Positions 27,399-42,687 are shown, numbered from the stretch's first letter. The stretch: DNA of 64,000 nucleotides from Deltaproteobacteria bacterium (GCA_040218735.1 JAVJQW010000046.1:288001-352000), one strand, 5' to 3'. Notes: generated from the sequence alone by a model not told the origin. Translations and numbers: made by a program.

Positions 27399-27564
27399 GA
27401 CTCGTGTACGTGCGAAACCGAAACTCGGACTCGCGGCCGGCACCTAAGCGCGTTCAGTCCAGCAAGACAAGCGATGATGGTTGTCGGCGATCGCGCGCCG
27501 GACGACCCTTGTCCGACGCGGTCCGGCGTTGGTAAGGCAGGGGCGGGTTGAAGCCGTGCGAAGC

Positions 27565-28143
27565 ATGAAGGTCATTGTCGGGTTTTCGGCGGTGCTGACC
27601 GTCGCGGGCGGCCTGTTCGGTGGCGTCGCCGAGGCGGGCAACGCCGCCACGGAGAAGCCGATCAAGCGGTTCGTTAACGCGGTGCGCTACAACAAGGACG
27701 CGCTCGCGCTCAAGCAGGTCGACGGGGACGCCCAGGGGCGGGTCCTGCTCGGCGATGCGTGGGCGAAGGGCTCCAAGGCGCAACAGCAGGAGTTCATCAA
27801 GCTGTTCCACCGCATCTTCTCGGCCTCGGCGTTCCCGCGACTGCGGGACAACCTCTCGAAGATCGAGACGATCGTCTACGCGGATCCGAAGAAGGACGGC
27901 CGCGACGCGACCGTGACGTCGACGCTGGTGCTCCTCCACCCGCTCAAGAAGGAGGAGATCAAGGTCCATTACCTGCTGACGCAGTCGAAGAAGGGCTACC
28001 GGCTGGTGGACGTCACCTTCGAAGGTGACCGCTCCTTGCTCACCAACGTTCGCGAGGACCAGATCAAACCGCTCTTCGCCGAAGGCGGCTGGTCGCACGT
28101 CCTCGAGATGATGCGCGCTCGGGTCAAGCAGCTCGACGGATGA
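27565..28143 (+). CDS. MlaC/HpnM-like periplasmic lipid-binding protein
   Basis: Signal peptide; LG..W...S..QQQEFIKLF; YRLVDVTFEG..SL. Confidence 0.82.
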   Translation: MKVIVGFSAVLTVAGGLFGGVAEAGNAATEKPIKRFVNAVRYNKDALALKQVDGDAQGRVLLGDAWAKGSKAQQQEFIKLFHRIFSASAFPRLRDNLSKIETIVYADPKKDGRDATVTSTLVLLHPLKKEEIKVHYLLTQSKKGYRLVDVTFEGDRSLLTNVREDQIKPLFAEGGWSHVLEMMRARVKQLDG

Positions 28144-30635
28144 AGCGCCCCATCCTCGACGCCTGGGTGCGTGCCCTCACGCATCGACCGGGTGTCACCC
28201 TCAGCGTCGTCCTCGCCTTCTGTGTCGCCGCGGCCGTGGCGGCCTCGACGCTCACGCTCGACACGAACCAGCTGAACCTGCTCGACCCCGATCTGCGGCA
28301 GGTGAAGAACACCCACCGCATCACGGACATGAACGGGGGCGCGGGTTTTCTGATCCTCGCGCTCCGCGGCCGTGACATCGAGCAGCTGAAGGCGGTCGCG
28401 ACCGACGTCGCGACCGAGCTCCGCAAGGACGAGGCGACGATCCTGTCCGCGCGCGAGAAGCTGGACGTCGGCTTCCTGAGGAAGAACGCGGCGCTGTTCA
28501 TGAAGACCGAGGACCTCGAGGAGGTTCGGCGGCGCGTGATGGCGAAGCTGAAGGACGTCGTGAAGCGCGCGAGCCCGTTCTTCTTCGAGATCAAGAAGAC
28601 GGAGCCGGTGAAGCTGGAGCTCGACGACATCCTCGCGAAGTACCAGCTCGGGAACCGGCGGATGGAGGAGGACTACAACGTCAGCGCCGACGGCGAGATG
28701 GCGCTCATCCTCATCAAGCCGACGTGGGACTCGAACGAGCTCGAGAAGACGGCGTCGCTCGTCGAGCAGGTGCGCGAGATGCTCGCCGCGTACGACAAAC
28801 GCGACGTCTCCCTCGTCGAGGACTACGAGCCGACGCCCGCCGAGAAGAAGAGCGTGATCGAGTACGGCTTCACCGGGACGTACAAGACCAACTACGACGA
28901 CAGCAACGAGATGACGTCGTCGCTCGTCCCGGTGAGCGGCGTGGCGTTCCTCGGCGTGGTGTTCGTGCTCGTGCTGTTCTTCCGGCGCCAGCTGTTCCTG
29001 ATCGCGACGGTCATCGTGTCGCTGCTGCTCGGGCTCTTGCTGACGTTCGGCTTCGCGGCGGTCACGGTGGGCCAGCTCAACATCATCACCGGCATCCTCG
29101 GCGGCATCCTGATGGGCTTCGGGATCGACTTCGGCATCCACTTCGCCTTCCGGCTGCGGTGGGAGCTGAAGATCGGCAACTCCCTCCCCAATGCGGTCGA
29201 GAACACCGTGCGCAACGCGGGGCCCGCCTCGTTCGCGGCGGCGTCGGGCGTCGGGGCTGCGTTCCTCTCGCTGTGTTTCTCGGACTTCCGCGGCTTCTCC
29301 GAGTTCGGGCTCCTCGCGGGCGTCGGCACGTTCCTCGTCGGCGGGATGATGTACCTGTTCGTCCCGGCGCTGTTGGTGTGGCTGCACGTGCGGTGGCCGG
29401 CGATGCGTCGGTGGATCGGAACGGAGCACGACGAAGACGCGGAGGCCCCCTCCGGTCACGTGTTGGAGCGCCCGGGGATCGTGCTGGCGGTCGCCTCGCT
29501 GGTCGCGGTGGCCATCGCGGCCTTCGCGCCGCGGATCGGCTTCGAGTACAACTCGCGCGCGCTGATGGTGGAGGGGCAGACGTCCGTGCTGCTCCAGGAC
29601 GAGATTCGGGAGCGCTTCGCGATCTCGTCGGACCCGGTCGCGATCTATTCAAAGGATTTGACCGAAGCGAAGGACGTCTACGACGCCCTCCAGCCGCTCG
29701 ACGAGGACCGCTTCTCGACGGTCGACGCGGTCATCTCGATCTACAGCTTCGTGCCGCCCGAGGCGCAGCAGAAGGCGAACGTGAAGGTGCTCGAAGCGTG
29801 GCGCGAGGAGCTCGCCTCCGTCGTCACGGACGAGTCGCGGATCCCGGCGGAGTTCAAGCCGCGCTACGAACAGATGAAGACGATGCTGTCGGCGGAGCCG
29901 TACGGCGTCGAGGACGTCCCGGAGCACCTCGAGCAGATCGTCACGAACCTCCCGTCCGCGAAGCCCGAGAACCACGGCTACCTCACGCTGGTCTACGCGG
30001 GCGTCGACCTGTGGGACGGCAAGATGATGCTCAAGTTCTCCGACGAGCTGGAGACGATCGTCGCGCCGAGCGGCAAGGAGTACCACGCGGCAGGCATCCC
30101 GATTCTGTTCTCCGTGCTCGCGAAGATCGTGCTCGCGGATGGACGCACGACGGTGATGTTCACCGGGGTCCTGCTCGTGCTGATCCTGCTGATCGAGTTC
30201 CGCTCGCTGCGGGATCTGATCGTCGCGCTGGTGCCGCTGACGTTGGGGATGGCGGTGATGCTCGGGCTGATCGTGTTGTTCGGCGGCGAGCTGAACTTCA
30301 TGAACGTCATCGTCTTCCCGATCATCCTCGGGTACGGCGTCAGCCACGGCGTGTACTTGATCCACCGCTTCAACGAGGGCGTGAGCCCGGCCGAGGCGTT
30401 GCGCTCCGTGGGCGCTGCGGTGACGTGCTCGACGCTCACGTCGCTCGCCGGTTGGGGCGCGCTCCTCACGGCGGCGCACCAGGGGCTGGCGTCGATGGGC
30501 ACGGTCGCGTGTTTCGGGATGGTCGCGACGCTCTGTGTGTCGTTCACGATCATGTTGCCGGTGCTCGAGCTGCTGTACCGGCGCCGGGACGCCGCGCCCG
30601 TATCGACCGTCGAGCAGATGAACGATGCGGCGTGA
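28140..30635 (+). CDS. MMPL/RND family transporter (HpnN-like)
   Basis: Two 1+5 TM repeats with large periplasmic loops, GFGIDFGIH and GYGVSHGVYLIHR; ATGA overlap with the upstream gene. Confidence 0.92.
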   Translation: MKRPILDAWVRALTHRPGVTLSVVLAFCVAAAVAASTLTLDTNQLNLLDPDLRQVKNTHRITDMNGGAGFLILALRGRDIEQLKAVATDVATELRKDEATILSAREKLDVGFLRKNAALFMKTEDLEEVRRRVMAKLKDVVKRASPFFFEIKKTEPVKLELDDILAKYQLGNRRMEEDYNVSADGEMALILIKPTWDSNELEKTASLVEQVREMLAAYDKRDVSLVEDYEPTPAEKKSVIEYGFTGTYKTNYDDSNEMTSSLVPVSGVAFLGVVFVLVLFFRRQLFLIATVIVSLLLGLLLTFGFAAVTVGQLNIITGILGGILMGFGIDFGIHFAFRLRWELKIGNSLPNAVENTVRNAGPASFAAASGVGAAFLSLCFSDFRGFSEFGLLAGVGTFLVGGMMYLFVPALLVWLHVRWPAMRRWIGTEHDEDAEAPSGHVLERPGIVLAVASLVAVAIAAFAPRIGFEYNSRALMVEGQTSVLLQDEIRERFAISSDPVAIYSKDLTEAKDVYDALQPLDEDRFSTVDAVISIYSFVPPEAQQKANVKVLEAWREELASVVTDESRIPAEFKPRYEQMKTMLSAEPYGVEDVPEHLEQIVTNLPSAKPENHGYLTLVYAGVDLWDGKMMLKFSDELETIVAPSGKEYHAAGIPILFSVLAKIVLADGRTTVMFTGVLLVLILLIEFRSLRDLIVALVPLTLGMAVMLGLIVLFGGELNFMNVIVFPIILGYGVSHGVYLIHRFNEGVSPAEALRSVGAAVTCSTLTSLAGWGALLTAAHQGLASMGTVACFGMVATLCVSFTIMLPVLELLYRRRDAAPVSTVEQMNDAA

Positions 30636-31200
30636 GCTCCTGATTGCGCTGGTCGCGCTCACCGGTTGCTCGGTGGTGCAGCACAGCCACGTGCGCCCCG
30701 ACTACGACGCCGAGGACAAGCAGAAGACGGTGCGCCTGATCGCGCTCGCGGTGCCGTCCCCGAACGGCGACGCCGCCCGCGGGCGCCTCGTCGCGAAGAT
30801 CACGCAGCGCTACGCGAACCATCACCGAGACTTCGTGGTGACGACCGCGAGCACCGCAGCGTCGCTCCCCGAGGACCGCTGCGCCGACGACATGCACGGC
30901 GTCCTGAAGGTCGCCGCGAAGTACACGGACGGCGACGAGATCGGCATCGAGGCCGAGGCGGAGATGGTGCGCTGCCGCGACGGCGAGCAGGTCTGGGCCG
31001 CGGGCGGCTCGGGCTCATGGCCGAAGGACGACCCGCAGATCTCCCAGGTCATCAAGCAGTACCGCGAAGAGATCGGCGAGGACGTCGCGCCCTACGTGCC
31101 GGCGACGTTCCACCTGCTGCGCGCGCTGCTCGACACGCTCCCGTACCCCGAGCTCGTCGACGACGACCTGGTGCTCGAGAAGATCGATCTCGAGGATTGA
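30625..31200 (+). CDS. Lipoprotein resembling the MXAN_6521/LA_1396 family
   Basis: Lipobox LTG-C; RPDY...DK...RL...RYAN.HRDF pattern; overlaps the MMPL gene. Confidence 0.7.
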   Translation: MRRELLIALVALTGCSVVQHSHVRPDYDAEDKQKTVRLIALAVPSPNGDAARGRLVAKITQRYANHHRDFVVTTASTAASLPEDRCADDMHGVLKVAAKYTDGDEIGIEAEAEMVRCRDGEQVWAAGGSGSWPKDDPQISQVIKQYREEIGEDVAPYVPATFHLLRALLDTLPYPELVDDDLVLEKIDLED

Positions 31201-31284: not shown

Positions 31285-32943
31285 ATGTGGACCCTCCGGC
31301 GCTCTCGGCTCACCCCTGTCTTGGCTTCGCTGGTGTTCTCGGTCGCGTGTGACTGCGGAGACTCCGCGCTCTACCAGCTCGACGCGACGATCGTGGCGAC
31401 GCCGACGCCGCTCGCGTTCGGGACCGTGCTCGACGTGGCTTCGACGCAGGTGCTGACGGTGGAGAACGTCGGGCGGGCGGAGCTGGAGATCTATTCGATC
31501 GAACGCTCCGAGGATTGGGACGCGCGGTTCTCGTTCGCGGCGGAGCCGATACGGCTCGAGGCCGACGGTCGTGTGGAGTGGGCGGTGACGTTCGACCCGA
31601 CGTTCGAGGGGCCCGCGGGCGGGGCGATTCACATCCACTCGAACGACATCGAGACGCCAGTGCTCGTCGTGCCGCTGGAGGCGCTCGCGGAGCGGACCAC
31701 GCCGCCCGCGCCGCCGCAGCTCGTCGTGTGCGCGGAGCGCGCGGGGGCCGCGGCGACGTGCAGCGCGCCGCACACGATCGACTTCGACACCGTGCCGACG
31801 GGGGAGTCACGCGAAGGGGCGATCGTCCTGGAGAACCGCGGTGGCTCGCCGCTGACGATCGCTTCGGCGTCGGTGGTCGCGGCGTCGTCCGCGGTACAGG
31901 TGCTCCCGTCCTTGGCGGACCTTCGGCTCGCGCCGGGCGCGACGGCGGTGCTCGAGGTCGACTTCGCGCCGACGGACGCGCAGCCGCAGAGCGCGACGGT
32001 GCGCATCACGTCCAACGATCCGCTCGCCCCGACGATCGACGTCACCATCCGTGGTCAGGGCGCGACCGCCGGTTGCGGCGGAATCCAAGGGCGCATCTGC
32101 GACGTCAGCGGCAACGGCCCGGCGGCCGGCGCGCGGGTCTACACCGATGCGAGCGGGCAGCGCTTCGAAGCGACCACGGACATGCAGGGCGACTGGTCGA
32201 TGACGTGTGTGCCGGAGGGGACGTGGAGGTTCACGGCCGAGAACGGTTCGTGGAGCACGTCGTTCACCGCCGACGTGATCGCCGGCGAGCAGACGCAGCT
32301 CACGACCGAGCAGTGCCTGGAGCCGACCTCGGCGCAGGTCGCGGTGGTGTGGGGCGAGTGGGACGAGATGGAGCGCATCCTCGACCGCATGGGGGTGACG
32401 TACACGATGTACCGCGACGTCGAGGACCTGGTGGATCAGCCGTCGGTGTTGAACGGCTACGACATCGTCTTCTTCAACTGCGGCTTCGACGAGTGGCGCG
32501 CGCTGCAGCCCGGGCCGATGGCGAACCTGCGCGCGTTCGTGGAGCAGGGCGGCTCGATCTACGCGTCCGATCTCGGCTACGACATCGTCGAAGTCGGCTG
32601 GCCGGCGTACGTCACCTTCGACGGGAACGACTCGATTCGCGACGATGCGGAGTGGGCGCCGCCGTACGACGGCTACGCCAACGTCGTGAACCCGTCGCTC
32701 GCCGCGGCGCTCGGCGGCGCGACGCAGGTCTACATCGAGAGTCCGGGGGCCGCGATGATCAGCGTGTCGTCGCAGACGACGACGTACCTCGACGGCGACC
32801 GCTTCATGGACGGCGGCAATCACCCGATGATGGTCGGCTTCCGTCCGACGCCGACCTCGGGGCGGGTCTTCTACACCGACTTCCACCAGGAGGGCGCGCA
32901 GCAGGTGGAGCGTGTCTTCGAGTGGTTGATCGCGAACCTCTAG
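31285..32943 (+). CDS. Lipoprotein with two ASH/choice-of-anchor D Ig domains, a carboxypeptidase-regulatory-like domain and a C-terminal alpha/beta (GATase-like) domain
   Basis: SVA-CDC; LAFG...TVENVG.A.LEI...FDP...IHSND twice; GRIC...GARVY...TTD..G; YDIVFFNC...LRAFVEQGGSIYASD...GRVFYT.FH. Confidence 0.75.
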   Translation: MWTLRRSRLTPVLASLVFSVACDCGDSALYQLDATIVATPTPLAFGTVLDVASTQVLTVENVGRAELEIYSIERSEDWDARFSFAAEPIRLEADGRVEWAVTFDPTFEGPAGGAIHIHSNDIETPVLVVPLEALAERTTPPAPPQLVVCAERAGAAATCSAPHTIDFDTVPTGESREGAIVLENRGGSPLTIASASVVAASSAVQVLPSLADLRLAPGATAVLEVDFAPTDAQPQSATVRITSNDPLAPTIDVTIRGQGATAGCGGIQGRICDVSGNGPAAGARVYTDASGQRFEATTDMQGDWSMTCVPEGTWRFTAENGSWSTSFTADVIAGEQTQLTTEQCLEPTSAQVAVVWGEWDEMERILDRMGVTYTMYRDVEDLVDQPSVLNGYDIVFFNCGFDEWRALQPGPMANLRAFVEQGGSIYASDLGYDIVEVGWPAYVTFDGNDSIRDDAEWAPPYDGYANVVNPSLAAALGGATQVYIESPGAAMISVSSQTTTYLDGDRFMDGGNHPMMVGFRPTPTSGRVFYTDFHQEGAQQVERVFEWLIANL

Positions 32944-33749
32944 CGCCTCGACCACACGCGGGCGCCGTGTTCATCGAGCTCGGCGCGTCGCTCCCGGAAC
33001 ACGTCGCCGTACCGGTGAAACGGGATGCGCGGCCAGAGGTGGTGAATCAGGTGGAGGTTGTGACCCATCATCGGGACGCCCAACCCCGCGACGTCGTACA
33101 GCCAGGCGTTCGTCCAGCGACGCCGGTCGCCGAACGGGTGGTGCGGTAGCCACGCGAACAAAAACGCGAGCACGCCGCCCGTGAGGATCGCGGGGAGCAC
33201 CCAGAGCGTGAGCACGGCCCAGCCCAAGCCGAGCCACGTCATCACTGCACTGAAGGTGACGAACGCCGCGACGCCCGCCCATGACTTACGTCGCTCGGCC
33301 GACTGATGTGCACCCGGGACCGCGCCGACGAAGAAGTTCCAGTAGTAGCGCGGGAGGAACGTCAGGCATCCGACCGGCGTCCACACGCCGCGAAACCGCG
33401 CGACCCAGTGGTCCGGGTCGCGGCGATCGTGGTTCACGTTGCCGTGGTGACGAAGGTGCGCGGCGCGGAACAGCGCGAGCGGTGCCAAGAGGATCGCCGC
33501 GGAGCTCCAACCGAACGCCACGTCCATCCACGCGCGCTCGCGCGAGCCCCCGATGTTGCCGTGGCAGGCCTCGTGGAGCGGCGTGAACGCGATGTACCCG
33601 GGCACCATCATCGCGATCGTCCCGGCCGGCGTCGGGAGGTGGCCGCCGAGGACGGCCCACCAGATCGTCGCGGTGAGCAAGTGCGCTGCGACGGACATCG
33701 TCACGGCGGGCCAGCCGGTGCGATGGGCTCCGAAGTCTGCGTCGACCAT
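32940..33749 (-). CDS. Membrane fatty-acid desaturase family protein (desaturase 2)
   Basis: His boxes HEACH, HLRHH, HLIHH; TM segments; TAATG overlap with the upstream desaturase. Confidence 0.9.
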   Translation of the reverse strand: MVDADFGAHRTGWPAVTMSVAAHLLTATIWWAVLGGHLPTPAGTIAMMVPGYIAFTPLHEACHGNIGGSRERAWMDVAFGWSSAAILLAPLALFRAAHLRHHGNVNHDRRDPDHWVARFRGVWTPVGCLTFLPRYYWNFFVGAVPGAHQSAERRKSWAGVAAFVTFSAVMTWLGLGWAVLTLWVLPAILTGGVLAFLFAWLPHHPFGDRRRWTNAWLYDVAGLGVPMMGHNLHLIHHLWPRIPFHRYGDVFRERRAELDEHGARVWSRR

Positions 33750-34807
33750 TACGCACGTCTCCGCGTCGGGACGGAGAGCTCCCCCGCGAGTCGATCGAGG
33801 TCCAGGCGCGAGCGGCCGCGCTGGTCCACGAGGGAGCGGTCGTCGCCGTAGAGGACGGGGGCTTCGAACACGGCGCGCATCGCGGTGCGCCAGGGCAGCG
33901 CCGCGACGGCGTTGGGATCGATCTGTTGTACCTTCTCGCGAAGCAGCGGCGCCCACTTGCAGCTCATGCTCGGGAAGAGGTGGTGCTCTTGGTGGTAGCT
34001 GAACTGGTAGTGCATCGCGTCGACCCAGCGCGGCACTTCGACGCTCAACGTCGTGGCCACCGGATCGTCCGCGTCGACGCGCGGCCGAATCCAGTGTTGC
34101 GTCGAGATGTAGCTCATCAGGATCGTGTTGCCGACCATGAGCGGGAGCACCAACACCCAGAGCGCGTCGAGCGGTCCGAGCACGAACGCCAGCGTGGCCC
34201 ACGCTGCGATCCACAGCGCCGAGGTGAGCATGAGCCAGGGGCGGGACATCTTGACGTTGCCGGCGAGCGGCGCGCGACCGGTCGCGACCCACAGGAAGTA
34301 CTGACCTTCGAGGGTGAACAGGAACGCCGGCGCGACCCACGAAGCCAACGTCCCCGACCCGGGGAAGAGGTTCGTGCGGAACCGATGCGCGAACATCGAC
34401 TCGAAGTGGTCGTGCCCCGACAACATGTCCGGGTCGTACTTCAGCTGGTTCGTTCCGCGGTGGTGCGCGCGCACGTGCCACGCCGTCCACAACCCGGGTG
34501 TGACGAGGAACGGACCGAACCCCACCCAGACGAGCAGTTGCCGCATCAGGGCGCTGCGGAAGATCGCACCGTGCGAGGCCTCGTGCGCGCACAGACCGGT
34601 GGACACGATCGACAGCCCGATCACGATCGACAGCGCTGCGTCGATGGGCCACCAAAGATCCGTCGCAACGACGGCGACCGCGATCGACACGGCGAAGCCG
34701 AAGGTCGCGAACGCCGCGAGGCCTCGAACCGGCACGGGCTCGAACGCCTCGGGGGGCATGAGCTCGCGGAGCCGTTGTCGGAGGTCGCGCGAGCTGATCA
34801 GCGTCAC
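33749..34807 (-). CDS. Membrane fatty-acid desaturase family protein (desaturase 1)
   Basis: His boxes HEASH, HVRAHH, HQEHH plus STQH; GTGA overlap with the PKS stop. Confidence 0.9.
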   Translation of the reverse strand: MTLISSRDLRQRLRELMPPEAFEPVPVRGLAAFATFGFAVSIAVAVVATDLWWPIDAALSIVIGLSIVSTGLCAHEASHGAIFRSALMRQLLVWVGFGPFLVTPGLWTAWHVRAHHRGTNQLKYDPDMLSGHDHFESMFAHRFRTNLFPGSGTLASWVAPAFLFTLEGQYFLWVATGRAPLAGNVKMSRPWLMLTSALWIAAWATLAFVLGPLDALWVLVLPLMVGNTILMSYISTQHWIRPRVDADDPVATTLSVEVPRWVDAMHYQFSYHQEHHLFPSMSCKWAPLLREKVQQIDPNAVAALPWRTAMRAVFEAPVLYGDDRSLVDQRGRSRLDLDRLAGELSVPTRRRA

Positions 34808-37800
34808 GACATCCTCCGCGCGACCGAATCGTCGATGCGCAGGCGCACCACGCCTTCGCCGTCCCGTACCTCGACCCGCGGGCAGCGAAGCAAGGGCCCA
34901 TCGACGGTCGGCGTCGCGGCGTGGATCGACCACCCGGAGCTGTCGTCGGTACGTCCGATCGGCAGCGTGAGGCGGCCCGCGCCGAGCGGGGCGAAGAGCG
35001 CCGTCGTGCCGTCCGCGTACATCCCGGAGAGGCGCCACGCGGCGTCGAGCACGAGCGAGGGGACGACGCCCTGGTCGACGCCCAACACCTCCGGGCCCAG
35101 CGTCGCGCTCCGCCCCGTCGTTCCGATCTCGATGTTGCGCAGGCAGTCGAACGGTCCGGACAGCTCGAGCGCGCTCGCGTCCGCGCAGTACGGATCGAGC
35201 ACCGATCGCCCCGCGTCGACCCGCACCTCGGGTGCGTAGCGCGTGGGCGGGTGACGGGCGATGGCGGCCTCGGCGAAGAGCACGTTGCGTGCGAGCACCA
35301 CGCCCGAGGCGTGGAGGACGTCCCCGACCAGCCGCACGCGTAGGTCGTCGCCGTCCTGCTCGACCACCGCGGTCAGTCGGGGCCCGCGCCCGTCGACGAC
35401 GCGTACGAAGCGGTGGAACTCGAGCGCACGCACCGTGGCTTCGCCGCCGCCGACCACGACTCCGGCGGCGTTCACCATGCGTTCGACGGACCACGCGCCG
35501 GGCACGGTCGGCGTCCCGCGGACGAGGTGATGGGTGAGGCAGGGGAGGTCGTCGACGTCGACCGGGACACGAGCGATCACGGTGCGGACGCCGTAGCGAA
35601 CGCGCTCGGCGTCGGTGAGCGGGAGGTGAATCGCCGCGTTCGTTCGGCCGCGGATCACGTCGAGGAAGAGGCGTTTTCCGTTGGCTTCGTCGACGCCGGA
35701 GAGGCCGCGGAGCTCTTGCAGCGCGCGGTACTCGGTGCCGCGGGTCATGCCGACGCCGTCCCACGCGAGCCAGCCGATGCTCGTCCAGCCGAGGCCCTCG
35801 CGGGAGGCCAGCGCGCAGAGGTGGTCCAGCGTCTCGTTGGCCGCGCCGTAGTCGTGCTGCCCGTCGTTGCCGAACACGCTGTACGCGGACGTCAACGCGT
35901 GGACGGCGACGCGTTGGTCGCGCAGCAGACACGCGCGCACGACGTTGGACAGGCCTTGGACCTTCACGTCGAAGGTCGTTCGGAGCTCCTGCAGCGTTCG
36001 ATCTTCGAGGCGCTTCGACCACTGCACGCCCGCCCCGTGGATCACGGCGTCGATGCGGCCGTGTTCTTCGAGGACGTCGTCGATCGCGGCGTCGACCGCG
36101 TCAGGGTCGGTGACGTCGACCGCGCGATACACGATGCGGCCCACGCGACGGAGACGCTCGACGGTGCGGTGTGCCTCCCATCGCGCACGCTGCGACGCGA
36201 AGCGCGACCGCAGCTGTGCCGGCGACATCCCGGGGTCGGCCTCGATGCACGCGGCATAGAAGCGTGCTTCGGCGTCATCGAGATCGTCGGGGCCGGCTTC
36301 GAGCTCGCTGCGTCCGAGCGCGACGACCGTGCACCCGACGTCTTCGAGCAGCGCCTCCACCAGGACCGCCGTGATCCCGCGGGCGCCGCCGGTGGCGATC
36401 ACGACGGACTGCGCGTCGAGGCGTTGCGCGGGCTCGCGCTCCGCGGGGCCACAGCGTTCGAGGCGGCGGACGAGGCGACCGTCGCCGCAGGACACACGTT
36501 CGACTTCGTCGCAGTCCGTCCCCCATTCGCGGGCGAGGGCTCGCATGCTCGGCTCGAGATCTCGATCCGTCAGCAGCACCCCCACCTGGGCTTCGTCGCG
36601 CTCTCTCGCGATCGCCTTCAACAAACCGCTCAGGGCGCCGGAGGCGGGGAGCGCATCGCCGGCTTCGAAGCCCCCGACGACGAGCCCCCAGAGCGCCACC
36701 GAATCCAACGCGTCGACGAAGTGCCGAGCGACGACGAACATCAGCTCGTGCACGGACCGGTCGTCGAGGGTGGCGTCCAGCGCGGCGTCGATCCCGGTCA
36801 CGCCGGGCTGAATGGCGACCACTGCGTCCGGGGCGAACGCGGTCAGTCGTGCGAGCGCGGCATCGTCGTCGTCGAGGTCGAAGGTGACGACCCGATCGCC
36901 GCGTGTGTCGCCGCGACCCGCGATGGCGATGAGGAAGTCGTCGCAGCAGACGTCGAGGTGCGTGCGCAGCGTGTCCGTCATCGTCGCGGGGCAGATGGCC
37001 ACGAGACGACGCACCCGACGCGGCTCACCGGCGGGACGCGCACCCACCCAGACCGGACGATGCAGCGGGAACACATCGGGCGGCGCTTGACCGACGGCGG
37101 CGTACAGCGCGCGAGGATCCGAACGATCCGCCGGGAGCTCTGAGAGCACCTCGAGGCCGAGCTCGGCCGCACGCGCGGGCGTCGTCACCGCAAAACACAC
37201 CGCGTGCTCCGGGCCAGGGCGGTGTCGATTCGCGTGGATCGAGGTGACGAGCGCGAGGCGCACGCCGTGTTCGGCGTCGCGATCTACGAGCCGCTCCGCC
37301 GCGGCGAACGCGTCCGCGAGGGAGCGCTCGCCCGCGTCCACCACGAAGTTCGGTCCCTTGAGGTTCAGGCGCGACGCCGCCCGTCCGGCGGAGACGTTGG
37401 GCATCATGCACTGGAGCGTGTAGGGGCCCGACGTTCGAGTCCGCGCCGCGGCGTCGGCGAGGCGCTCGGCGTCGGCTGGGTCGAGGTCGCGGCCGATGCG
37501 CGGTGCGAGGACACGCAGGGTCGCGTCGAGACCTCGCTCGGTCTTGCCGGACATCGCCAAGACGACGCTCGTGTCGCGGCGCACGTCGTCGGGGAGCGGC
37601 GCGAGGTCCTCCAACGTTCGGTGGACGATCGCGATCGCGAGGGTCTGCGTCGGGTCCATGTCCTCCGCGAGATCCGGCAAGAGCAGGACCCCCTTGGGGA
37701 GCTCGAGCGTGTCGCGGTCGAAGCGCCCCTCGGGAGGGAACACGCCGTGCGCCGCGACGACGACGAGGGGGGCGCTCTGCGGGTGGCGGGCCTCGACAGG

Positions 37801-40587
37801 GGGGCGTTCGCTCGACGGGAGGTACCGTTCGACGACCAGGTGCGCGTTCGCGCCGCCGAACCCGAAGCCGTCGACGGCGATCCGGCAAGGCCCCTCCGGC
37901 AGCGCGCGAGGTTCACTGGATACACTGAGTGTATCGGAGACGGATCGCAGCGCGGAGCAGGGTTCGTCGTAGTTCGATTGCCCCGGGAGCTCGCCGTTCG
38001 CCAGGGCTTCGCAGGCCGCGATCACCGACGCGGTCCCGGCGGCCCACCCCGCGTGGCCGAGCAGCCCCTTCAGGCTGTGGACGGGGATCGGTGAAGCCGT
38101 GCCTCGGTAGAAGCCGCTGAGGGTCGCGAGCTCGGTGGCGTCGCCGACGGGGGTCGACGTCCCGTGCGCTTCCACGCCGACGATCGTGTCGGGGTCGACG
38201 TCGTAACCCGCGTAGCAGCGCTCGAGCGCGAGCGCTTGGCCGGCCGACTGCGGAACGTTCGCAGAGGGGCTGAGGCCGTCGCTCGACAACCCGGCGCCGC
38301 AGACGACCGCGGCGATTCGATCGCCGTCGCGCTCGGCGTCGGCGAGCCGTCGCAGCAGGACGAAGCTGGCGCCTTCGGAGAAGGCCACGCCGTCGGCGTT
38401 TGCGTCGAACGGACGCAGCGCGTGAGCCGTGAGCCCGCCGAACTGGGAGAACAGACAGTTGTTGCCGGGCCCCGGACAGAAGACCCCGCCCGCGATCACG
38501 GCGTCCGCTTCGCCGCGCTCCAGCGCGCGCATCCCGAGGGCGACGGTGTACAGCGAGGAGGCACAAGCAGCGTCGAGCAACGTGGTCTCGGCGCGCCCGT
38601 CCAGGAGGAGATCGACCACCGAACGTGTGGCGTCGTAGGGCGTTGGCGCGGGCTCGGTCGCGAGGCCGGCGGTGCTCAGCGACGTCGCACGGTCTTGATC
38701 CTCGAACCCGTCCGCGGTCGCGCCGACGAAGCAGAGGATGCGGTCGTCGGCGCGCGCCGCGGTCGTGCAGGGCGTGAGCGCGATGACGAGGAGCTTCTGC
38801 GTTCGCGTGAGGGCATCGAAGGCCGCGGCGTCGAACCCGGGCGGGCAGCGCATCGAATCGACGACGCCGGCCATCGCGGACGTGGAGCGGTCCGGCGTGT
38901 TCGTGGCGGCGTAGAAGTCGCGCTCCCAGCTCGCGTCGATCCCTCGCAGGTCGACGACGCCGGAGCGGCGCTCCTTCAGCGCAGACCAGAGCGCGGCGGG
39001 GCTGTCGGCGCCCGCGGGCAGGCTGCACCCGGCGGCGACGATCACGACCCTGGGCGCGCGAGGCTCGACGTTGCTGGGGGACTCGGGCGTCGCCGTGACT
39101 TCGACGGCTGGGCCCTCGTCGGCGGAGGCGCTCGACACCCGCACGTGATCGGGGGCCGCCGTGGCGATCAGGCGAGCCAGCTTCCCGGTGGTGCTGCAGT
39201 CGACGAAGTGCTCGGCCCCCGCGTCGACGAGATCGCCGATCGCGCCAAAGAGATCGAACGGCCGCAGCAGCTGACTGACCAAGATGGCGCGGACGTCATC
39301 GGTCGGGAGCACGCGCCGCCGACCGATCGGGGAGTAGAGGAGCCGCTCGGGGCCGCGCACGTCGAGCGCGCGGAGCGCTTCGTGCCACGCCACGGCGGCG
39401 GCGCCGAGCGCCGGGTGATGAAAGCTCGTCGGCGACGGGACGACGGTGCTCTGGATGTCACTCGCGCGCAGGATGGCTTGCAGGGATTCGAGCTCGGCGG
39501 TCGGTCCGGAGACGATGGTCTGGGTCCGGTGGTTCCGTCCGGCGATCACCACCGCCTCGCTGCCCAGCTTGGTGATCGCCAGCTCGGTCTCCACCCGGTT
39601 CGCCGCCACCGCCAGCAGTCCGCCTTCGGGCGCATGCCGGGCGAGCGCGGCGACCCGGGCGCAGACGATCTCGACGCCCGTGGCCCAGTCGAAGCAGCCT
39701 GCCACGCACATCGCAGCGATCTCTCCGAAGCTGTGTCCGGCGAGCGCGGCGGGGCGTCCGCTTCGGAGGTGTGCGCCGAGGACACCCTGCAGAAAGATGC
39801 CGACCTGCACGAGATCCCGGCGCTGCCCGACGGCGCGGACGCATCGCTCGAGGTCGCCGCTCAACAGACCGGCGCCGTCTCCGTCCAAGCGCGCCGTGGT
39901 GATCGTCGCGCAGCGGTCGAGCACGGACCGGACGTCCTGCGCGCGGCGGATGCGCTCGCTGAAGGCGACGGGGTCGAACGAGCCTTGGCCGGCGAAGAGC
40001 CAAGCTTCGATCTCGGCGCGCGCGGGTGCGCTTCGGATCAGTCCGGGCGTGGGGTGTCGCGGTCGCAGGTAGTCGATGGCGGCCTGTCGCGCCGCGGCGG
40101 GGAAGAGTCGGTCCTCGACGTCATCACCCGCGAGGACGAGCGCGCGAAAGTCCGTGTCGGTCGGCTCGTCGAGCTCGGTGAGGCGCGCCATGCAGTCGGC
40201 GAGCGGTCCGGGCATCGGCGTCGGGCGCCCGGTCTGCGCCGACACCGAAGTGATCGTTTGGAAGCCGGCGCACACCGGGACGCCTTCGCTGTTCATCACG
40301 CGAAAGCAGAAGCGGAGCTGGACGTCGCCGCGGTCTTCGAGGCTCACGAGGATGACGAGGCGGTCCGCGAGGTGGGCGGGCGCGAGGTTTCGGGCGTAGG
40401 CGTCGGAGGTGAGGAGGCGAATCGATTCGAGCGCTTCGGGCACGCCGTCGATGTCGAAGACGTGCTCGCCGAACAGCAGCGCCTCGCGCGCGGCACACTG
40501 GAGCTTGAAGGCCGTCAGGAAGTGGTGGCTCCCGTACGCCATCGTGTCGTCGAAGTGGATCGTGTAGGGCGTGGCGAACCAGGACAC
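34804..40587 (-). CDS. ACP-less type I PKS/FAS-like protein: hotdog TE - AT - KS - degenerate KS (CLF-like) - KR - DH
   Basis: HFDDT..G..F...Q..RE hotdog; FAGQGS and GHSFG (AT); DAACASS, EAHGTST, KGLLGH (KS); PNVSAGRAA..LNLKGPNFVVDAGERS (KS without Cys); TGGARGI, HGAGV, DYGAAN (KR); HLVRGTPTVPG and LDAAW (DH); GTG start 7 nt after the upstream stop. Confidence 0.9.
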   Translation of the reverse strand: MSWFATPYTIHFDDTMAYGSHHFLTAFKLQCAAREALLFGEHVFDIDGVPEALESIRLLTSDAYARNLAPAHLADRLVILVSLEDRGDVQLRFCFRVMNSEGVPVCAGFQTITSVSAQTGRPTPMPGPLADCMARLTELDEPTDTDFRALVLAGDDVEDRLFPAAARQAAIDYLRPRHPTPGLIRSAPARAEIEAWLFAGQGSFDPVAFSERIRRAQDVRSVLDRCATITTARLDGDGAGLLSGDLERCVRAVGQRRDLVQVGIFLQGVLGAHLRSGRPAALAGHSFGEIAAMCVAGCFDWATGVEIVCARVAALARHAPEGGLLAVAANRVETELAITKLGSEAVVIAGRNHRTQTIVSGPTAELESLQAILRASDIQSTVVPSPTSFHHPALGAAAVAWHEALRALDVRGPERLLYSPIGRRRVLPTDDVRAILVSQLLRPFDLFGAIGDLVDAGAEHFVDCSTTGKLARLIATAAPDHVRVSSASADEGPAVEVTATPESPSNVEPRAPRVVIVAAGCSLPAGADSPAALWSALKERRSGVVDLRGIDASWERDFYAATNTPDRSTSAMAGVVDSMRCPPGFDAAAFDALTRTQKLLVIALTPCTTAARADDRILCFVGATADGFEDQDRATSLSTAGLATEPAPTPYDATRSVVDLLLDGRAETTLLDAACASSLYTVALGMRALERGEADAVIAGGVFCPGPGNNCLFSQFGGLTAHALRPFDANADGVAFSEGASFVLLRRLADAERDGDRIAAVVCGAGLSSDGLSPSANVPQSAGQALALERCYAGYDVDPDTIVGVEAHGTSTPVGDATELATLSGFYRGTASPIPVHSLKGLLGHAGWAAGTASVIAACEALANGELPGQSNYDEPCSALRSVSDTLSVSSEPRALPEGPCRIAVDGFGFGGANAHLVVERYLPSSERPPVEARHPQSAPLVVVAAHGVFPPEGRFDRDTLELPKGVLLLPDLAEDMDPTQTLAIAIVHRTLEDLAPLPDDVRRDTSVVLAMSGKTERGLDATLRVLAPRIGRDLDPADAERLADAAARTRTSGPYTLQCMMPNVSAGRAASRLNLKGPNFVVDAGERSLADAFAAAERLVDRDAEHGVRLALVTSIHANRHRPGPEHAVCFAVTTPARAAELGLEVLSELPADRSDPRALYAAVGQAPPDVFPLHRPVWVGARPAGEPRRVRRLVAICPATMTDTLRTHLDVCCDDFLIAIAGRGDTRGDRVVTFDLDDDDAALARLTAFAPDAVVAIQPGVTGIDAALDATLDDRSVHELMFVVARHFVDALDSVALWGLVVGGFEAGDALPASGALSGLLKAIARERDEAQVGVLLTDRDLEPSMRALAREWGTDCDEVERVSCGDGRLVRRLERCGPAEREPAQRLDAQSVVIATGGARGITAVLVEALLEDVGCTVVALGRSELEAGPDDLDDAEARFYAACIEADPGMSPAQLRSRFASQRARWEAHRTVERLRRVGRIVYRAVDVTDPDAVDAAIDDVLEEHGRIDAVIHGAGVQWSKRLEDRTLQELRTTFDVKVQGLSNVVRACLLRDQRVAVHALTSAYSVFGNDGQHDYGAANETLDHLCALASREGLGWTSIGWLAWDGVGMTRGTEYRALQELRGLSGVDEANGKRLFLDVIRGRTNAAIHLPLTDAERVRYGVRTVIARVPVDVDDLPCLTHHLVRGTPTVPGAWSVERMVNAAGVVVGGGEATVRALEFHRFVRVVDGRGPRLTAVVEQDGDDLRVRLVGDVLHASGVVLARNVLFAEAAIARHPPTRYAPEVRVDAGRSVLDPYCADASALELSGPFDCLRNIEIGTTGRSATLGPEVLGVDQGVVPSLVLDAAWRLSGMYADGTTALFAPLGAGRLTLPIGRTDDSSGWSIHAATPTVDGPLLRCPRVEVRDGEGVVRLRIDDSVARRMS

Positions 40588-40594
40588 GGCGAAC

Positions 40595-41824
40595 CTACTT
40601 TCCGAGGACCGCGAGGCTGTTCGCGGGGAGCCCGTGCGGTTGCAGTCGGCTGTCGGCGTGCGCGGAGAAGCCACGGTCGACGTTCCACACGGCGCCGTTG
40701 ATCGCGCGGGCGCCATCGCTCACGAGGAACGCGATCGTCCGTGCGACGTCGTGCGGGCTGCAGAGCGAACCTCCCGGCGTCATCGACTCCCAGTGGCGCT
40801 GGGACGCGTCGGCCTCCGGGAGTTTGTCGAGGAGCTCTCCGTAGATCGGACCGGCGGCGACACAGTTGGTGCGCACGCCGTACGGCGCGAGCTCACAGGC
40901 GAGGTAGCGGGTGAGGGACTCGACGGCGGCCTTGACCACGCCTTGGCAGCCGAGGCCGCTCACGTACTGGTGCGCGCCGATCGCGGAGAGCGTCGCGATC
41001 GCGCCGCCGCCGCGCGCTTGCATCAGCGGCGCCGCGCGCATCGCGCAGTGGTGATGCCCGCTGACGTTCGTTCGAAACGCCCGGTCCCAGTCTCCACGGT
41101 CGACATCCGCGAACGATCCGACGCGGCCGTCCGAGGCGTTGCACACCAGGATGTCGAGGTAGCCGAAGCGGCGGGAGATCTCGTCGAACATCGCGTCGAC
41201 GTGCTCTTGCTTCGCGACGGAGCCCCACAGGTGCGTCGCGTCCGCACCGTTCGCTTCGAGCTCGCGCACCGCTGCTTCGCCGGCTTCGCGGGAGTGGAAG
41301 GAGTTGAGGAGCACGGTCGCGCCCTGCGACGCGAGCACTTCGGCGATCACGCGGCCAATGCCTCGACCGGAGCCGGTGATCAGCGCGACCCTGCCGTCGA
41401 GCGGTCCGGTCGACGGTGAGGGCTTCGAAGGTCGGGGCTTCGGCGGCGTGGCCGGCTTGGGCGAAGCGGGGACGAGCGCGATCGCCGGAGGCGGCGCGTG
41501 CTCGGTCGGCGGAGGCGGCGCGTTCTCGAAGGTGGGCGCGGACGAACCGAGCAACGACGCGACCCACGCCGTCGCTTCTTCGAGCGTGCGAACGGCGCGG
41601 TCCCGTTCGGCGGGGAGCTCGACGCCGAACTCCTTGCCGAGCGCGGCGATGATCTCGACCTGCTTGACCGAGTCGATCCCGAGGTCGTTGGCGAGGTCCG
41701 CCGTGGGGACGAGGATCTCCTTCGGGAACCGCGTCGTGCGGGCCACACAGGCGACGACCCGCTCTGCGATCTGTTCGTGGCTGTACGTCTTCGCCGTCCC
41801 GTTCGGGTTCGACTGCCCCTTCAT
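40595..41824 (-). CDS. Acyl carrier protein - SDR (FabL-like enoyl reductase) fusion
   Basis: ADLANDLGIDSVKQVEI (Ppant Ser), Pro-rich linker, TGSGRGIG, CNASDG, KAAVESLTRYLACELAP.GVR.N.V.AG. Confidence 0.88.
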   Translation of the reverse strand: MKGQSNPNGTAKTYSHEQIAERVVACVARTTRFPKEILVPTADLANDLGIDSVKQVEIIAALGKEFGVELPAERDRAVRTLEEATAWVASLLGSSAPTFENAPPPPTEHAPPPAIALVPASPKPATPPKPRPSKPSPSTGPLDGRVALITGSGRGIGRVIAEVLASQGATVLLNSFHSREAGEAAVRELEANGADATHLWGSVAKQEHVDAMFDEISRRFGYLDILVCNASDGRVGSFADVDRGDWDRAFRTNVSGHHHCAMRAAPLMQARGGGAIATLSAIGAHQYVSGLGCQGVVKAAVESLTRYLACELAPYGVRTNCVAAGPIYGELLDKLPEADASQRHWESMTPGGSLCSPHDVARTIAFLVSDGARAINGAVWNVDRGFSAHADSRLQPHGLPANSLAVLGK

Positions 41825-41868
41825 GCCGGGTTGGAGACTTCGGCGATGCGGGGTGTAACGAAGAATCG

Positions 41869-42366
41869 TCAGAGACCGACTTCGACGATCGCCTTCTGGT
41901 CGCGGATCGTCACCGACTTCACGAGCATCTTCTCGTGCGGCTTCTTCAGGCGGTGCACGGGCGTGACCTCGAGCTGCGCACGCACGAGGCCGGTCGCGGC
42001 GGCGCGCACTTCGTCGTGGTACTTCGCGGGGAGATCGGGGACATCGAGCTTGGTGACCTCGGCGTTGCGTAGGAACAGCGCCGAGCTGTCTTCGTCGTAC
42101 TCGAGGTCACCGAGGACGCCGAGTCGCCCGGTGTACTTCACGAAGCCGACGCGAATCCCTGCGTCGAGCTCCAGCGCCACGCGGTCGGACCCTTCGGTGA
42201 GGTGGATCGCGGGGGCTTCGAGCACGAGCTTCGCGACGACGACGTCCTTTTCGACGGGGAACTTCTTGTCGACCTTGGCCTGAAGATCAGCCTGCGTCAG
42301 CACGACCGTCGTGCGGAGTGGAGCGCTGCATCCGACGAAGAGGAGCGCGAGGAACACGCGGTACAT
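41869..42366 (-). CDS. DUF1439 (YceB-like) lipoprotein
   Basis: Lipobox FVG-C; LTQADLQAKVDKKFPVEK...G.LEYD...LFL...PVHRL. Confidence 0.75.
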   Translation of the reverse strand: MYRVFLALLFVGCSAPLRTTVVLTQADLQAKVDKKFPVEKDVVVAKLVLEAPAIHLTEGSDRVALELDAGIRVGFVKYTGRLGVLGDLEYDEDSSALFLRNAEVTKLDVPDLPAKYHDEVRAAATGLVRAQLEVTPVHRLKKPHEKMLVKSVTIRDQKAIVEVGL

Positions 42367-42418
42367 GCGTCGCGTCCGTAACACGGGCGCGCGCTCGACG
42401 AGAAAGTGGTGATCGCGA

Positions 42419-42595
42419 TCAGCGCGTCTCGATTTGGGAGCTGGCCATCGAGGGCTCGCGCTTCTTGACCTCGACCTCGCGCTCGGCGACCTCCGGCGGA
42501 GGCAGCGCATCGGCCGGCCTGCTGGGCTCTAGAACACGCCGCGCCTCGGTGTCTCGGCTCGTCTCAGTGATGTCGTTCGTCGTCTCGGCACCCAT
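42419..42595 (-). CDS. Possible small hydrophilic protein (58 aa)
   Basis: ATG 42595 with GGGA upstream; fills the gap on the same strand as its neighbours; no family recognised. Confidence 0.3.
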   Translation of the reverse strand: MGAETTNDITETSRDTEARRVLEPSRPADALPPPEVAEREVEVKKREPSMASSQIETR

Positions 42596-42687
42596 GTCGT
42601 TCGTATCCCAGAACCATGTACACACGGGTGATTTGAAGCTGCAAGGTGTCTTGCGGCCAACCTTGAAACTTACGGACGCCGTTCCTG

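Follow-up and report, generated by a model that had tools for sequence, protein, structure and literature searches.

A four-gene operon couples a two-protein fatty-acid/polyketide-type synthase of a widespread uncharacterised family to two membrane desaturases

The window, a 64,000-nucleotide stretch of DNA from a Deltaproteobacteria bacterium, contains at positions 32940-41824 a real four-gene operon encoding a compact fatty-acid/polyketide-type synthase and two membrane desaturases. The genes and their domains, in order of transcription, are as follows.

40595..41824, minus strand: gene 1, ORF for the ACP-SDR protein (P0003, 409 aa)
about 41603-41764, minus strand: ACP of P0003, residues 21-74 (Pfam PP-binding; Ser in GIDS)
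about 40664-41392, minus strand: SDR of P0003, residues 145-387 (Pfam adh_short_C2, 154-387)
34804..40587, minus strand: gene 2, ORF with a GTG start for the synthase (P0001, 1927 aa)
40183..40587, minus strand: hotdog TE, residues 1-135 (4HBT_2, 52-129; near-invariant HFDDTMAYG)
39133..40005, minus strand: AT, residues about 195-485 (Acyl_transf_1, 260-421; mdcH/FabD-type NCBIfam match, 195-485; GHSFGE)
37753..39054, minus strand: KS, residues about 512-945 (ketoacyl-synt N and C, 513-873; KAsynt_C_assoc, 886-945)
37093..37764, minus strand: truncated CLF-like half domain (KS*), residues about 942-1165 (ketoacyl-synt N-terminal match)
35758..36405, minus strand: KR, residues 1395-1610 (Pfam KR, 93 bits; GGARG and YGAAN)
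34807..35571, minus strand: DH, residues about 1673-1927 (PKS_DH_N, 1673-1748; HxxxGxxxxP with conserved His)
33749..34807, minus strand: gene 3, ORF for desaturase 1 (P0002, 352 aa)
32940..33749, minus strand: gene 4, ORF for desaturase 2 (P0004, 269 aa)

The coupling of the four genes described in the earlier note was found at every junction: 7 nt (gttcgcc) separate the TAG stop of gene 1 from the GTG with which the synthase starts, the synthase TGA and the desaturase 1 GTG share a GTGA overlap, and the desaturase 1 TAA and the desaturase 2 ATG share a TAATG overlap. The GTG start of the synthase is backed by relatives whose alignments begin at residue 1-3. Positions 32400-42600 (10.2 kb) are covered by one 46,184-bp contig from a separate metagenome study (run X2), with 116 differences, 0 gaps and approximately 99% identity; because this independent contig spans the whole region, the operon is not an assembly artefact. 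Of 232 strain differences 40 were listed, and those lying within genes amount to 39 codon changes (21 synonymous and 18 non-synonymous); the difference at 33749 disrupts neither the desaturase 1 stop nor the desaturase 2 start.

P0001 follows the order hotdog TE, AT, KS, truncated CLF-like domain, a structural KR part, KR and DH, and Pfam detected no PP-binding domain in it. The TE-AT-KS-KS*-KR-DH layout lacking an ACP that had been proposed for this protein holds for the order and for the missing ACP, but KS* amounts to only about half a KS domain. HMM searches recovered the domains claimed for P0001, with the DH marginally under its Pfam cut-off (PKS_DH_N, 25.2 bits; cut-off, 27). In the DH region, relatives of P0001 hold precomputed PF21089 or PF14765, and an NCBIfam search with the DH part of P0001 alone matched no model; with the operon proteins in general, no NCBIfam model reached its own cut-off. 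The motifs noted for the KS (DAACASS, HGTST, GH), AT (GHSFGE), KR (YGAAN) and DH (HxxxGxxxxP) were conserved among 35 aligned family members.

The KS retains its catalytic Cys (in DAACASS) and both His residues (in HGTST and GH). By sequence it scored highest with type I PKS models in NCBIfam and the PDB (type I PKS KS domains, E 4e-54, with MAS as the best match), and VIA structure comparison gave Z values of about 50 to KS structures, the top row being the ishigamide KS (Z, 51.5) with FabF-type structures within 1. The second ketoacyl-synt match, at residues of about 971-1106 (39.1 bits), covers only profile positions 80-194 of 252, and the catalytic Cys position of KS* is a Glu in the window and unconserved in the family. 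A single-sequence PDB search with KS* returned no match. For the model of KS and KS* together (pLDDT, 88.3; pTM, 0.91), Foldseek ranked the PfaC KS-CLF didomain 6riw first (TMq, 0.74; 747 columns; rmsd, 6.4), all other listed matches having TMq values of 0.50-0.55, and KS-only matches about 0.52; a second comparison of this model in VIA aligned the KS alone. Through this one Foldseek row, the model suggests that KS and KS* resemble a PfaC-type KS-CLF, with KS* as half a KS fold.

The N terminus of P0001 has, as judged from its AF2 model (residues 1-190; pLDDT, 91.0), a 4HBT-type thioesterase fold. Foldseek placed at the top thioesterases of the 4HBT/YbgC type, such as 4k00 (TMt, 0.81), together with two enediyne enzymes, CalE7 (rank 4) and SgcE10 (rank 18); the E values of these two, approximately 1e-9 to 1e-8, are level with those of the YbgC-type enzymes. 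Run alone, the domain matched Pfam 4HBT_2 at 29.5 bits (cut-off, 25.5). The TE thus shares the 4HBT hotdog character of the enediyne-type thioesterases, but is fused to P0001 rather than discrete.

In P0003, a Pro/Ala-rich linker joins a single ACP to the SDR, and Myxococcaceae relatives carry two tandem ACPs. In both sequence and structure, the SDR is closest to FabL of B. subtilis (3oic/3oid): the top NCBIfam model is FabL (NF005975; 201.5 bits, below the cut-off of 328), the best PDB sequence match is 3oic (E 1e-38), its neighbours among the Atlas structures belong to FabL clusters (TM, 0.85-0.89), and the alignment retains the TGSxRGxG glycine-rich motif and the catalytic Lys. A review (PMC9260719) gives the FabL signature as Asn-Ser-Tyr-x6-Lys. 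P0003 has the Asn, Ser and Lys, which the family conserves, along with the nucleotide-binding glycine motif, and the SDR is strictly conserved and ACP-fused in the family. The Tyr is absent throughout: P0003 has Leu at this position, and each of the 65 aligned sequences has Leu, Met or Phe there. Where classical SDRs have the Tyr of Tyr-x3-Lys, the family has an invariant Gln. The domain thus differs from FabL in its fusion to an ACP, in both Tyr positions and in its score below the NCBIfam cut-off. By these features the fused SDR is FabL-like and so enoyl-reductase-like, but its reductase role is only putative because the catalytic Tyr of FabL is missing family-wide.

Both desaturases matched Pfam FA_desaturase (PF00487; cut-off, 29.7), desaturase 1 at 100.2 bits with the His boxes HEASH, HVRAHH and HQEHH, and desaturase 2 at 104.5 bits with HEACH, HLRHH and HLIHH. 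Their NCBIfam matches were DesB-type (216.8 bits; cut-off, 500) and CrtR-type (118 bits; cut-off, 475), respectively.

Relatives of the synthase with 41-51% identity, collinear over residues 1-1926, occur at many loci. Full-length members are common in Pirellulales and Myxococcota under the database names 'type I polyketide synthase' or 'SDR family oxidoreductase', and according to database records they are found in cultured Myxococcus, Corallococcus, Pyxidicoccus, Archangium, Minicystis, Stieleria and Botrimarina. In 41 of 48 loci an ACP-SDR gene lies upstream of the synthase; in the other seven the contig breaks off where the match has its 5' end or close to it. The pair is present at 46 planctomycete loci. 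Of these planctomycete loci, 24 have 3.8 kb or more of flank on each side, and none of the 24 has a linked desaturase, which argues that desaturation is no inherent function of the synthase. In Myxococcota-type loci (L056-L092), desaturase 1 lies directly 3' of the synthase in 34 of 37, and the other three end at or before the synthase stop; it was also found in loci L028, L033 and L055. This trio is kept across several genera with variable flanks, and its members are the only gene families that 28 or more of the 30 long Myxococcota loci have in common. Desaturase 2 stood beside a synthase in none of the 80 loci retrieved with its closest relative; the linkage was seen only in the window, with a candidate second case in one genome, and a TetR gene precedes the nearest relatives found elsewhere, as it does a paralogue within the window's own genome. 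Desaturase 2 (a desaturase/hydroxylase) is a local addition to the operon in this lineage. Two expectations of the earlier note therefore did not survive: the synthase family is widespread in planctomycetes and myxobacteria instead of being a rare new system, and synteny gives a conserved unit of two genes in the former and three in Myxococcota, not four. The core of the operon is a widespread uncharacterised family with an orphan pathway and not a one-off system.

The suggestion that the operon fits no known architecture stands, as no characterised cluster with this domain order was found in the literature searched. Polyyne/JamABC-type pathways consist of an acyl-ACP ligase, an ACP, membrane desaturases/acetylenases and a thioesterase. 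The operon likewise brings together an ACP, two membrane FA_desaturase-family enzymes and a thioesterase, but its chain would be built de novo by a KS/AT/KR/DH protein and not ligase-loaded, and no AMP-binding domain was found in the four proteins or the flanking ORFs scanned. Enediyne PKSEs have the order KS-AT-ACP-KR-DH-PPTase and work with a discrete hotdog thioesterase (CalE7, SgcE10). P0001 shares with them one KS, AT, KR and DH module and a 4HBT-type hotdog thioesterase, but its TE is fused N-terminally, it has no ACP or PPTase domain, and the operon adds a CLF-like half domain and an SDR, with no cassette genes nearby. Like the highly reducing type II PKS of ishigamide, it pairs KS and CLF, KR and DH for iterative action on a free-standing ACP, whereas in P0001 these parts are fused, AT included, in one type I-like polypeptide. 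Type I FASs and fully reducing (MAS-like) PKSs are ordered KS-AT-DH-ER-KR-ACP; P0001 has another order, no MDR ER and no ACP. The PUFA synthases (PfaABCD) are also iterative multidomain FAS/PKS hybrids with a KS followed in cis by a CLF (PfaC), an enoyl reductase on a separate polypeptide and a patchy spread across phyla. The operon differs from them in its TE-AT-KS-CLF-KR-DH order, in an ACP that sits on another protein fused to an SDR, in a PKS-type instead of a FabA-type DH, in a FabL-like SDR instead of the FMN-dependent PfaD, in a CLF of half a domain and in the lack of tandem ACPs inside P0001. Pfam and NCBIfam searches of the four proteins (E ≤ 0.01) found neither a FabA-type DH/isomerase nor a FabK/PfaD FMN reductase. 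Tandem ACPs, described in the available text of Shulse & Allen 2011 as a hallmark of secondary-lipid synthases, are a further likeness through the Myxococcaceae relatives; none of the type descriptions A-T given there fits the operon.

We give roughly even weight, for and against, to the reading that the operon encodes a self-contained, iterative, PUFA-synthase-like secondary-lipid synthase split over two proteins, which would release a free acyl chain modified by desaturases. HMMs, alignments and models agree with the earlier proposal of a two-protein synthase with intact catalytic motifs and an ACP in trans, followed by membrane desaturases. In the flanking ORFs scanned there was no further domain of the PKS, NRPS, AMP-ligase or PPTase kind, so one module must presumably run all cycles. 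The AT would load malonyl units onto the free-standing ACP of P0003, the KS with its in-cis CLF-like half domain would elongate the chain and set its length, and each beta-keto group would be processed by KR and DH. Enoyl intermediates may then be reduced by the ACP-fused FabL-like SDR, perhaps not in every cycle, and the finished chain would be freed as an acid by the N-terminal 4HBT-type hotdog thioesterase. Desaturase 1 would introduce a double bond, and desaturase 2, probably recruited locally from the TetR-linked stand-alone family, a double bond or a hydroxyl; the substrate of either enzyme could be the ACP-bound chain or a chain already in a lipid. An acyl or polyene product had been envisaged; the FabL-like nature of the fused SDR makes a reduced fatty-acyl chain at least as likely as a polyene. 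Nothing in the analysis speaks for the acetylenic product also suggested. Counting against the reading as a whole are the missing Tyr of the SDR, the FabL and DH scores below their cut-offs, the half-size CLF-like part, the lack of a PPTase in the ORFs scanned and the planctomycete synthases that do without a linked desaturase.

A somewhat unlikely alternative, similar to what the earlier note proposed, is that the SDR is no enoyl reductase and that KS, AT, KR and DH build an ACP-bound conjugated polyene in PKSE-like fashion, which the hotdog thioesterase frees and the desaturases further unsaturate. The family-wide loss of the SDR Tyr, the similar fit of the TE model to CalE7 and SgcE10 and to YbgC-type enzymes, and a domain set (TE, KS, AT, KR, DH and ACP) equal to a PKSE plus its thioesterase are consistent with this route. 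However, the conserved glycine motif, Asn, Ser and Lys of the SDR and its fusion to the ACP speak for catalysis on intermediates carried by the ACP, the enzymes most closely related to it are enoyl reductases, the flanking ORFs scanned contain no enediyne cassette or other tailoring genes, and membrane fatty-acid desaturases usually take saturated or monoenoic chains. A rearranged canonical Pfa synthase making EPA-, DHA- or ARA-type fatty acids anaerobically is highly improbable: the PfaC-like KS-CLF didomain, a partial match to the PfaA model (291.8 bits) and the tandem ACPs of some relatives point that way, but the score of P0001 is far below the PfaA cut-off (TIGR02813; 1010.1 bits), the four proteins lack the FabA- and FabK/PfaD-type domains, this operon has only one ACP, and oxygen-dependent desaturases argue for double bonds added afterwards.

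The desaturases might instead be ordinary bulk-phospholipid enzymes unrelated to the synthase product, a decidedly unlikely reading that concerns mainly desaturase 2. The family of desaturase 1 is general in myxobacteria, the closest relatives of desaturase 2 stand alone, each following a TetR regulator gene, the synthases of planctomycetes lack a linked desaturase, and 7 of the 14 listed strain differences in desaturase 2 alter a residue, the start codon included. Against this stand the position of desaturase 1 directly 3' of the synthase across genera with varying flanks, and the overlapping stop and start codons at both desaturase junctions in the window, one of them preserved despite a strain difference.

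If the two-protein synthase reading is true, the family would represent a minimal iterative lipid synthase of two proteins (three with the desaturase), conserved across two phyla, with a domain order unlike that of any characterised FAS, PKS or PUFA synthase. The operon could also establish a type of FabL-like reductase that lacks the Tyr and is joined to its own carrier protein, and the compact KS-half-CLF pair may serve chain-length engineering. In Pirellulales loci with enough flank, a membrane GGDEF-EAL protein adjoins the two-gene synthase in 21 of 24 and a FadL/TodX-type outer-membrane channel in 13 of 24; by analogy with DSF/BDSF and RpfR, these neighbours suggest a possible circuit from a lipid signal to c-di-GMP. 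On this analogy the product of the family might be a fatty-acid-like signal that is released and diffuses, and not a component of membranes, with its reduction step relying on a new SDR chemistry that has Gln and no Tyr and takes place on a fused carrier protein; we consider this idea rather unlikely. Were it true, the Myxococcota version, including the four-gene operon, would make a desaturated variant of the signal. Because cultured strains carry the family, a new bacterial lipid or signal could be named there.

The four minus-strand genes span 32940-41824, and our reading of the sequence bore out the junctions claimed for them: 7 nt separate the TAG of gene 1 from the GTG of gene 2, and the other genes are joined by a GTGA overlap (genes 2 and 3) and a TAATG overlap (genes 3 and 4). 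ORF and Pfam analysis gave the following products.

40595-41824, minus strand: gene 1 (P0003), carrier protein (ACP) fused to an SDR, 409 aa
34804-40587, minus strand: gene 2 (P0001), large synthase, 1927 aa from GTG
33749-34807, minus strand: gene 3 (P0002), FA_desaturase-family protein (desaturase 1)
32940-33749, minus strand: gene 4 (P0004), FA_desaturase-family protein (desaturase 2)

Relatives of the synthase align from residue 1-3, which supports its GTG start. The locus was compositionally unremarkable (G+C ~68-70% across the window), and promoter and terminator scans gave no signal exceeding shuffles. The same arrangement was carried by metagenome contigs from other studies, namely a 46,184-bp contig (run X2) that aligns without gaps over 32400-42600 and shows 116 differences, and a 5,109-bp contig (run X4, a third study) that contains both desaturase genes and the 3' portion of the synthase gene; it is therefore not an assembly artefact. 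Among the 40 of 232 contig differences listed, those within genes altered 39 codons, 21 synonymously and 18 nonsynonymously. The T>C change at 33749 (runs X2, X3 and X4) converts the stop codon of desaturase 1 from TAA to TAG and, with the same base, the start codon of desaturase 2 from ATG to GTG, so that stop and start are both preserved. In the run X4 contig, a base is missing at 34893 and another is inserted behind 34897, so that close to the synthase 3' end the frame shifts for about one codon and is then restored. DNA nearly identical to 32940-41824 was present in aquatic, sponge, aquaculture, biofloc and biofilm metagenome contigs from several studies; at least half of the sampled words of this interval occurred in four runs, of which one was discounted as the possible source and two others belong to the same study.

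The domain order claimed for the synthase, a thioesterase followed by AT, KS, a second KS-like domain (KS*), KR and DH with no ACP, was recovered with Pfam and NCBIfam profiles, neither of which detected a carrier domain in P0001.

Residues 52-129: 4HBT-type hotdog domain (29.5 bits alone, cut-off 25.5)
Residues ~195-485: AT
Residues 513-873: KS, with a post-KS linker at 886-945
Residues ~971-1106: second KS-like match (KS*), covering profile positions 80-194 of 252 only
Residues 1395-1610: KR
Residues 1673-1748: PKS-type DH, match to its N-terminal half with 25.2 bits (cut-off 27)

An NCBIfam search with the DH part alone returned no matches. When 35 family members were aligned, the AT, KS, KR and DH catalytic motifs proved conserved, as did an N-terminal HFDDTMAYG motif; the Cys position of KS* did not. 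A single-sequence PDB search with the KS* and linker region yielded nothing meaningful (best match GroES, E 0.57), and the KS-like call for this segment comes only from the Pfam profile and the fold. The AlphaFold model of residues 500-1200, built from a 32-row alignment (pLDDT 88.3, pTM 0.91), had as its top Foldseek match the KS/CLF didomain of the PUFA synthase part PfaC (6riw; TMq 0.74 over 747 columns, rmsd 6.4), whereas the remaining listed matches (TMq 0.50-0.55) corresponded to KS alone. This difference places KS*, in the predicted structure, at the chain-length factor position, though it corresponds to only about one half of a domain. A second structure comparison (VIA) of the KS and KS* model aligned KS only (model residues 11-425) and was uninformative on KS*. 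The model of residues 1-190 (pLDDT 91.0) was a hotdog thioesterase, about equally near YbgC/DHNA-CoA-type enzymes and the enediyne thioesterases CalE7 and SgcE10.

The closest relatives of the SDR part of P0003 were FabL-type enoyl-ACP reductases, as indicated by the NCBIfam model NF005975 (201.5 bits, cut-off 328), the PDB entry 3oic (E 1e-38) and, as leads only, structural neighbours from FabL clusters in the Atlas (TM 0.85-0.89). The FabL signature has been described as Asn-Ser-Tyr-x6-Lys in the consulted part of a review (PMC9260719). In the 3oic alignment, FabL has its Tyr seven residues before Lys; the window SDR has Leu there, and Leu, Met or Phe occupied this position in all 65 aligned family SDRs. 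Four residues before Lys, where classical SDRs have their Tyr, the family carries an invariant Gln. An aromatic residue eleven before Lys varied among Tyr, Phe, Trp and His. Since the relatives are of FabL type and the SDR retains Asn, Ser and Lys as well as the Gly-rich nucleotide motif, a putative enoyl-reductase role is the simplest and most economical assignment. Within the SDR part of P0003 (40664-41392), which lacks the catalytic Tyr family-wide, lies the block:

LSAIGAHQYVSGLGCQGVVKAAVE

A Tyr-less SDR could work by an uncommon reductase chemistry, or it could catalyse another reaction. The carrier part of gene 1 also varied: tandem ACPs with two carrier Ser motifs were found in Myxococcaceae loci (L056:8480-9976, L066:8011-9519 and L083:8320-9984), and a single motif in the window, in Minicystis (L092), in a Bdellovibrionales-labelled MAG (L028) and in the two planctomycete loci examined (L026 and L030).

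Scanning species-representative genomes with the synthase identified 48 loci at 41-51% identity, mostly full-length; 46 were planctomycetes by record title, mostly Pirellulales, among them the cultured Botrimarina colliarenosi, Stieleria marina and two Pirellulaceae strains. The ACP-SDR gene lay directly upstream of the synthase in 41 loci; in the other seven, the contig breaks off close to the 5' end of the match or at it. A Myxococcus relative, used as the query of a second scan, brought in 37 further loci of Myxococcota type, from Myxococcus, Corallococcus, Pyxidicoccus, Archangium, Vitiosangium, Hyalangium, Citreicoccus, Minicystis and MAGs. In 34 of these, the gene directly after the synthase encodes a desaturase-1 homologue (36-48% identity), and in the other three the sequence ends at or before the synthase stop. 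When ORFs of the 30 long Myxococcota loci were clustered, the only families present in at least 28 loci were ACP-SDR (29), synthase (29) and desaturase 1 (28), and the next-commonest family that was not an antisense shadow reached 13. No desaturase-1 homologue was detected at E <= 1e-8 in the planctomycete loci, including the 24 with at least 3.8 kb on each side. A protein collection contained many more members than these loci, and its best 119 synthase matches besides the query scored 1242-1871 bits; named matches were labelled "type I polyketide synthase" or "SDR family oxidoreductase", or bore a label taken over from another enzyme, for instance "mycocerosic acid synthase". Among 19 genomes of the window's taxonomic family, a full-length synthase match was found in the window's genome only. 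A FastTree phylogeny of 63 full-length proteins, which omitted those outside 1900-2400 aa (Minicystis is among those absent) and the duplicate L091, separated 33 planctomycete rows, by a fully supported branch, from the window synthase and 26 Myxococcota rows; the exact place of the window synthase is unsure because its branch is long (0.76).

Desaturase 2 (P0004) scored 118 bits against the CrtR model of NCBIfam (cut-off 475). The best matches to the synthase (P0055, 51% identity), desaturase 1 (P0006, 55%) and desaturase 2 (P0174, 53%) all have records pointing to one 11,099,100-bp contig, a candidate for a second four-gene operon, and none of the 80 loci fetched with P0174 had a synthase beside the desaturase. 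Among 20 genomes of the window's class, a desaturase-2 match at E <= 1e-30 was found only in the window's own genome. The closest relatives (L111, L175 and L113) each lie behind a TetR-family gene, as does, directly, a 41% paralogue in the window's genome (G000:C20:16795-17565; L192). Given these TetR-linked stand-alone relatives and no synthase-adjacent locus among those 80, desaturase 2 looks, by sequence comparison, like a stand-alone TetR-linked desaturase of which a copy joined the operon in the window's lineage.

The surroundings of the locus were as follows.

41869-42510, minus strand: DUF1439 lipoprotein gene, upstream, 44 nt from gene 1
Upstream of the operon, minus strand: FAD-dependent protein gene
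27481-31200, plus strand: MlaC-like gene, MMPL transporter gene and unknown 191-aa ORF, downstream and convergent with the operon
31285-32943: Ig-like lipoprotein gene after the 191-aa ORF, downstream and convergent

In other loci, none of these genes was found again beside the synthase. The MlaC-like/MMPL group resembles a lipid-transport set and is not kept there. Neither the MlaC-MMPL pair (27481-30635) nor the DUF1439 gene was accepted as a member of the system, as neither recurs beside the synthase elsewhere. No further PKS, NRPS, ligase or PPTase domains were seen in the window ORFs scanned; the remainder of the window carries housekeeping and regulatory genes, and a 1302-aa ORF (11347-15255, plus strand) has coding-like codon bias and no Pfam family at E <= 1e-5.

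Profile model scores from NCBIfam were used to gauge KS affinity, a rough proxy for a phylogeny with PfaA, PfaC, HglE and PKSE. The nearest way of working to the operon is that of the PUFA-type secondary-lipid synthases, with which it shares a KS-CLF pair, a trans-acting reductase and, in some relatives, tandem ACPs. A true PUFA synthase is nevertheless a less likely reading, as the operon fails the PfaA model cut-off and has neither a FabA-type DH nor a PfaD-type ER. The enzyme set and thioesterase type are those of the enediyne PKSE, but domain order, ACP position and PPTase differ. The domain order of P0001 is absent from the cluster types in the part of Shulse & Allen 2011 consulted. In the consulted parts, a 2025 review refers to nothing beyond "monomodular PKSs" from Rhodopirellula whose product is unknown, and a survey from 2025 of clusters conserved in Myxococcota lists unknown T1PKS clusters with no products. 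A check for a characterised cluster with the same domain order, or any characterised family member, found none in full-text literature outside subscription journals.

The enzyme consists of one module and has no partner synthase, and must therefore act iteratively. In the scheme that we propose, AT would charge the free-standing ACP, KS with the cis CLF-like half domain would extend the chain and limit its length, and KR and DH would process it; enoyl intermediates would then be reduced by the ACP-tethered FabL-like SDR, the free acid would be released by the hotdog thioesterase, and the chain would be modified by desaturase 1 and, in the window, desaturase 2. We give this scheme as a whole about an even chance of being correct. 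The main rival, which we consider rather improbable, is that the SDR performs no enoyl reduction and a polyene is made, as by an enediyne PKSE and its thioesterase; the missing Tyr speaks for it, and the FabL-type relatives and retained nucleotide motif favor the reductase. That the desaturases are functionally unrelated neighbours is also less likely; this reading would apply mainly to desaturase 2 and is favored by the planctomycete synthases, which have no linked desaturase, and the recurrence of desaturase 1 behind the Myxococcota synthases speaks for our scheme. The four-gene observation in the earlier note was confirmed, and its interpretation, a two-protein iterative synthase whose chain the desaturases convert, is partly supported.

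In the 24 Pirellulales loci with at least 3.8 kb on each side, the ACP-SDR and synthase pair was flanked by a membrane GGDEF-EAL protein in 21 and by a FadL/TodX-type outer-membrane protein in 13 (examples: L003:1341-3278 and 11565-12899; L026:16439-20003; L030:16492-20069). The GGDEF-EAL gene was a same-strand upstream neighbour of the pair in 18 loci and an opposite-strand downstream neighbour in 11. Neither neighbour was present in the window or the Myxococcota loci. The placement of the GGDEF-EAL gene in Pirellulales suggests a functional link to c-di-GMP signalling. Collectively, the locus is an orphan, widely conserved, non-canonical iterative synthase, of which the four-gene form is a local elaboration.
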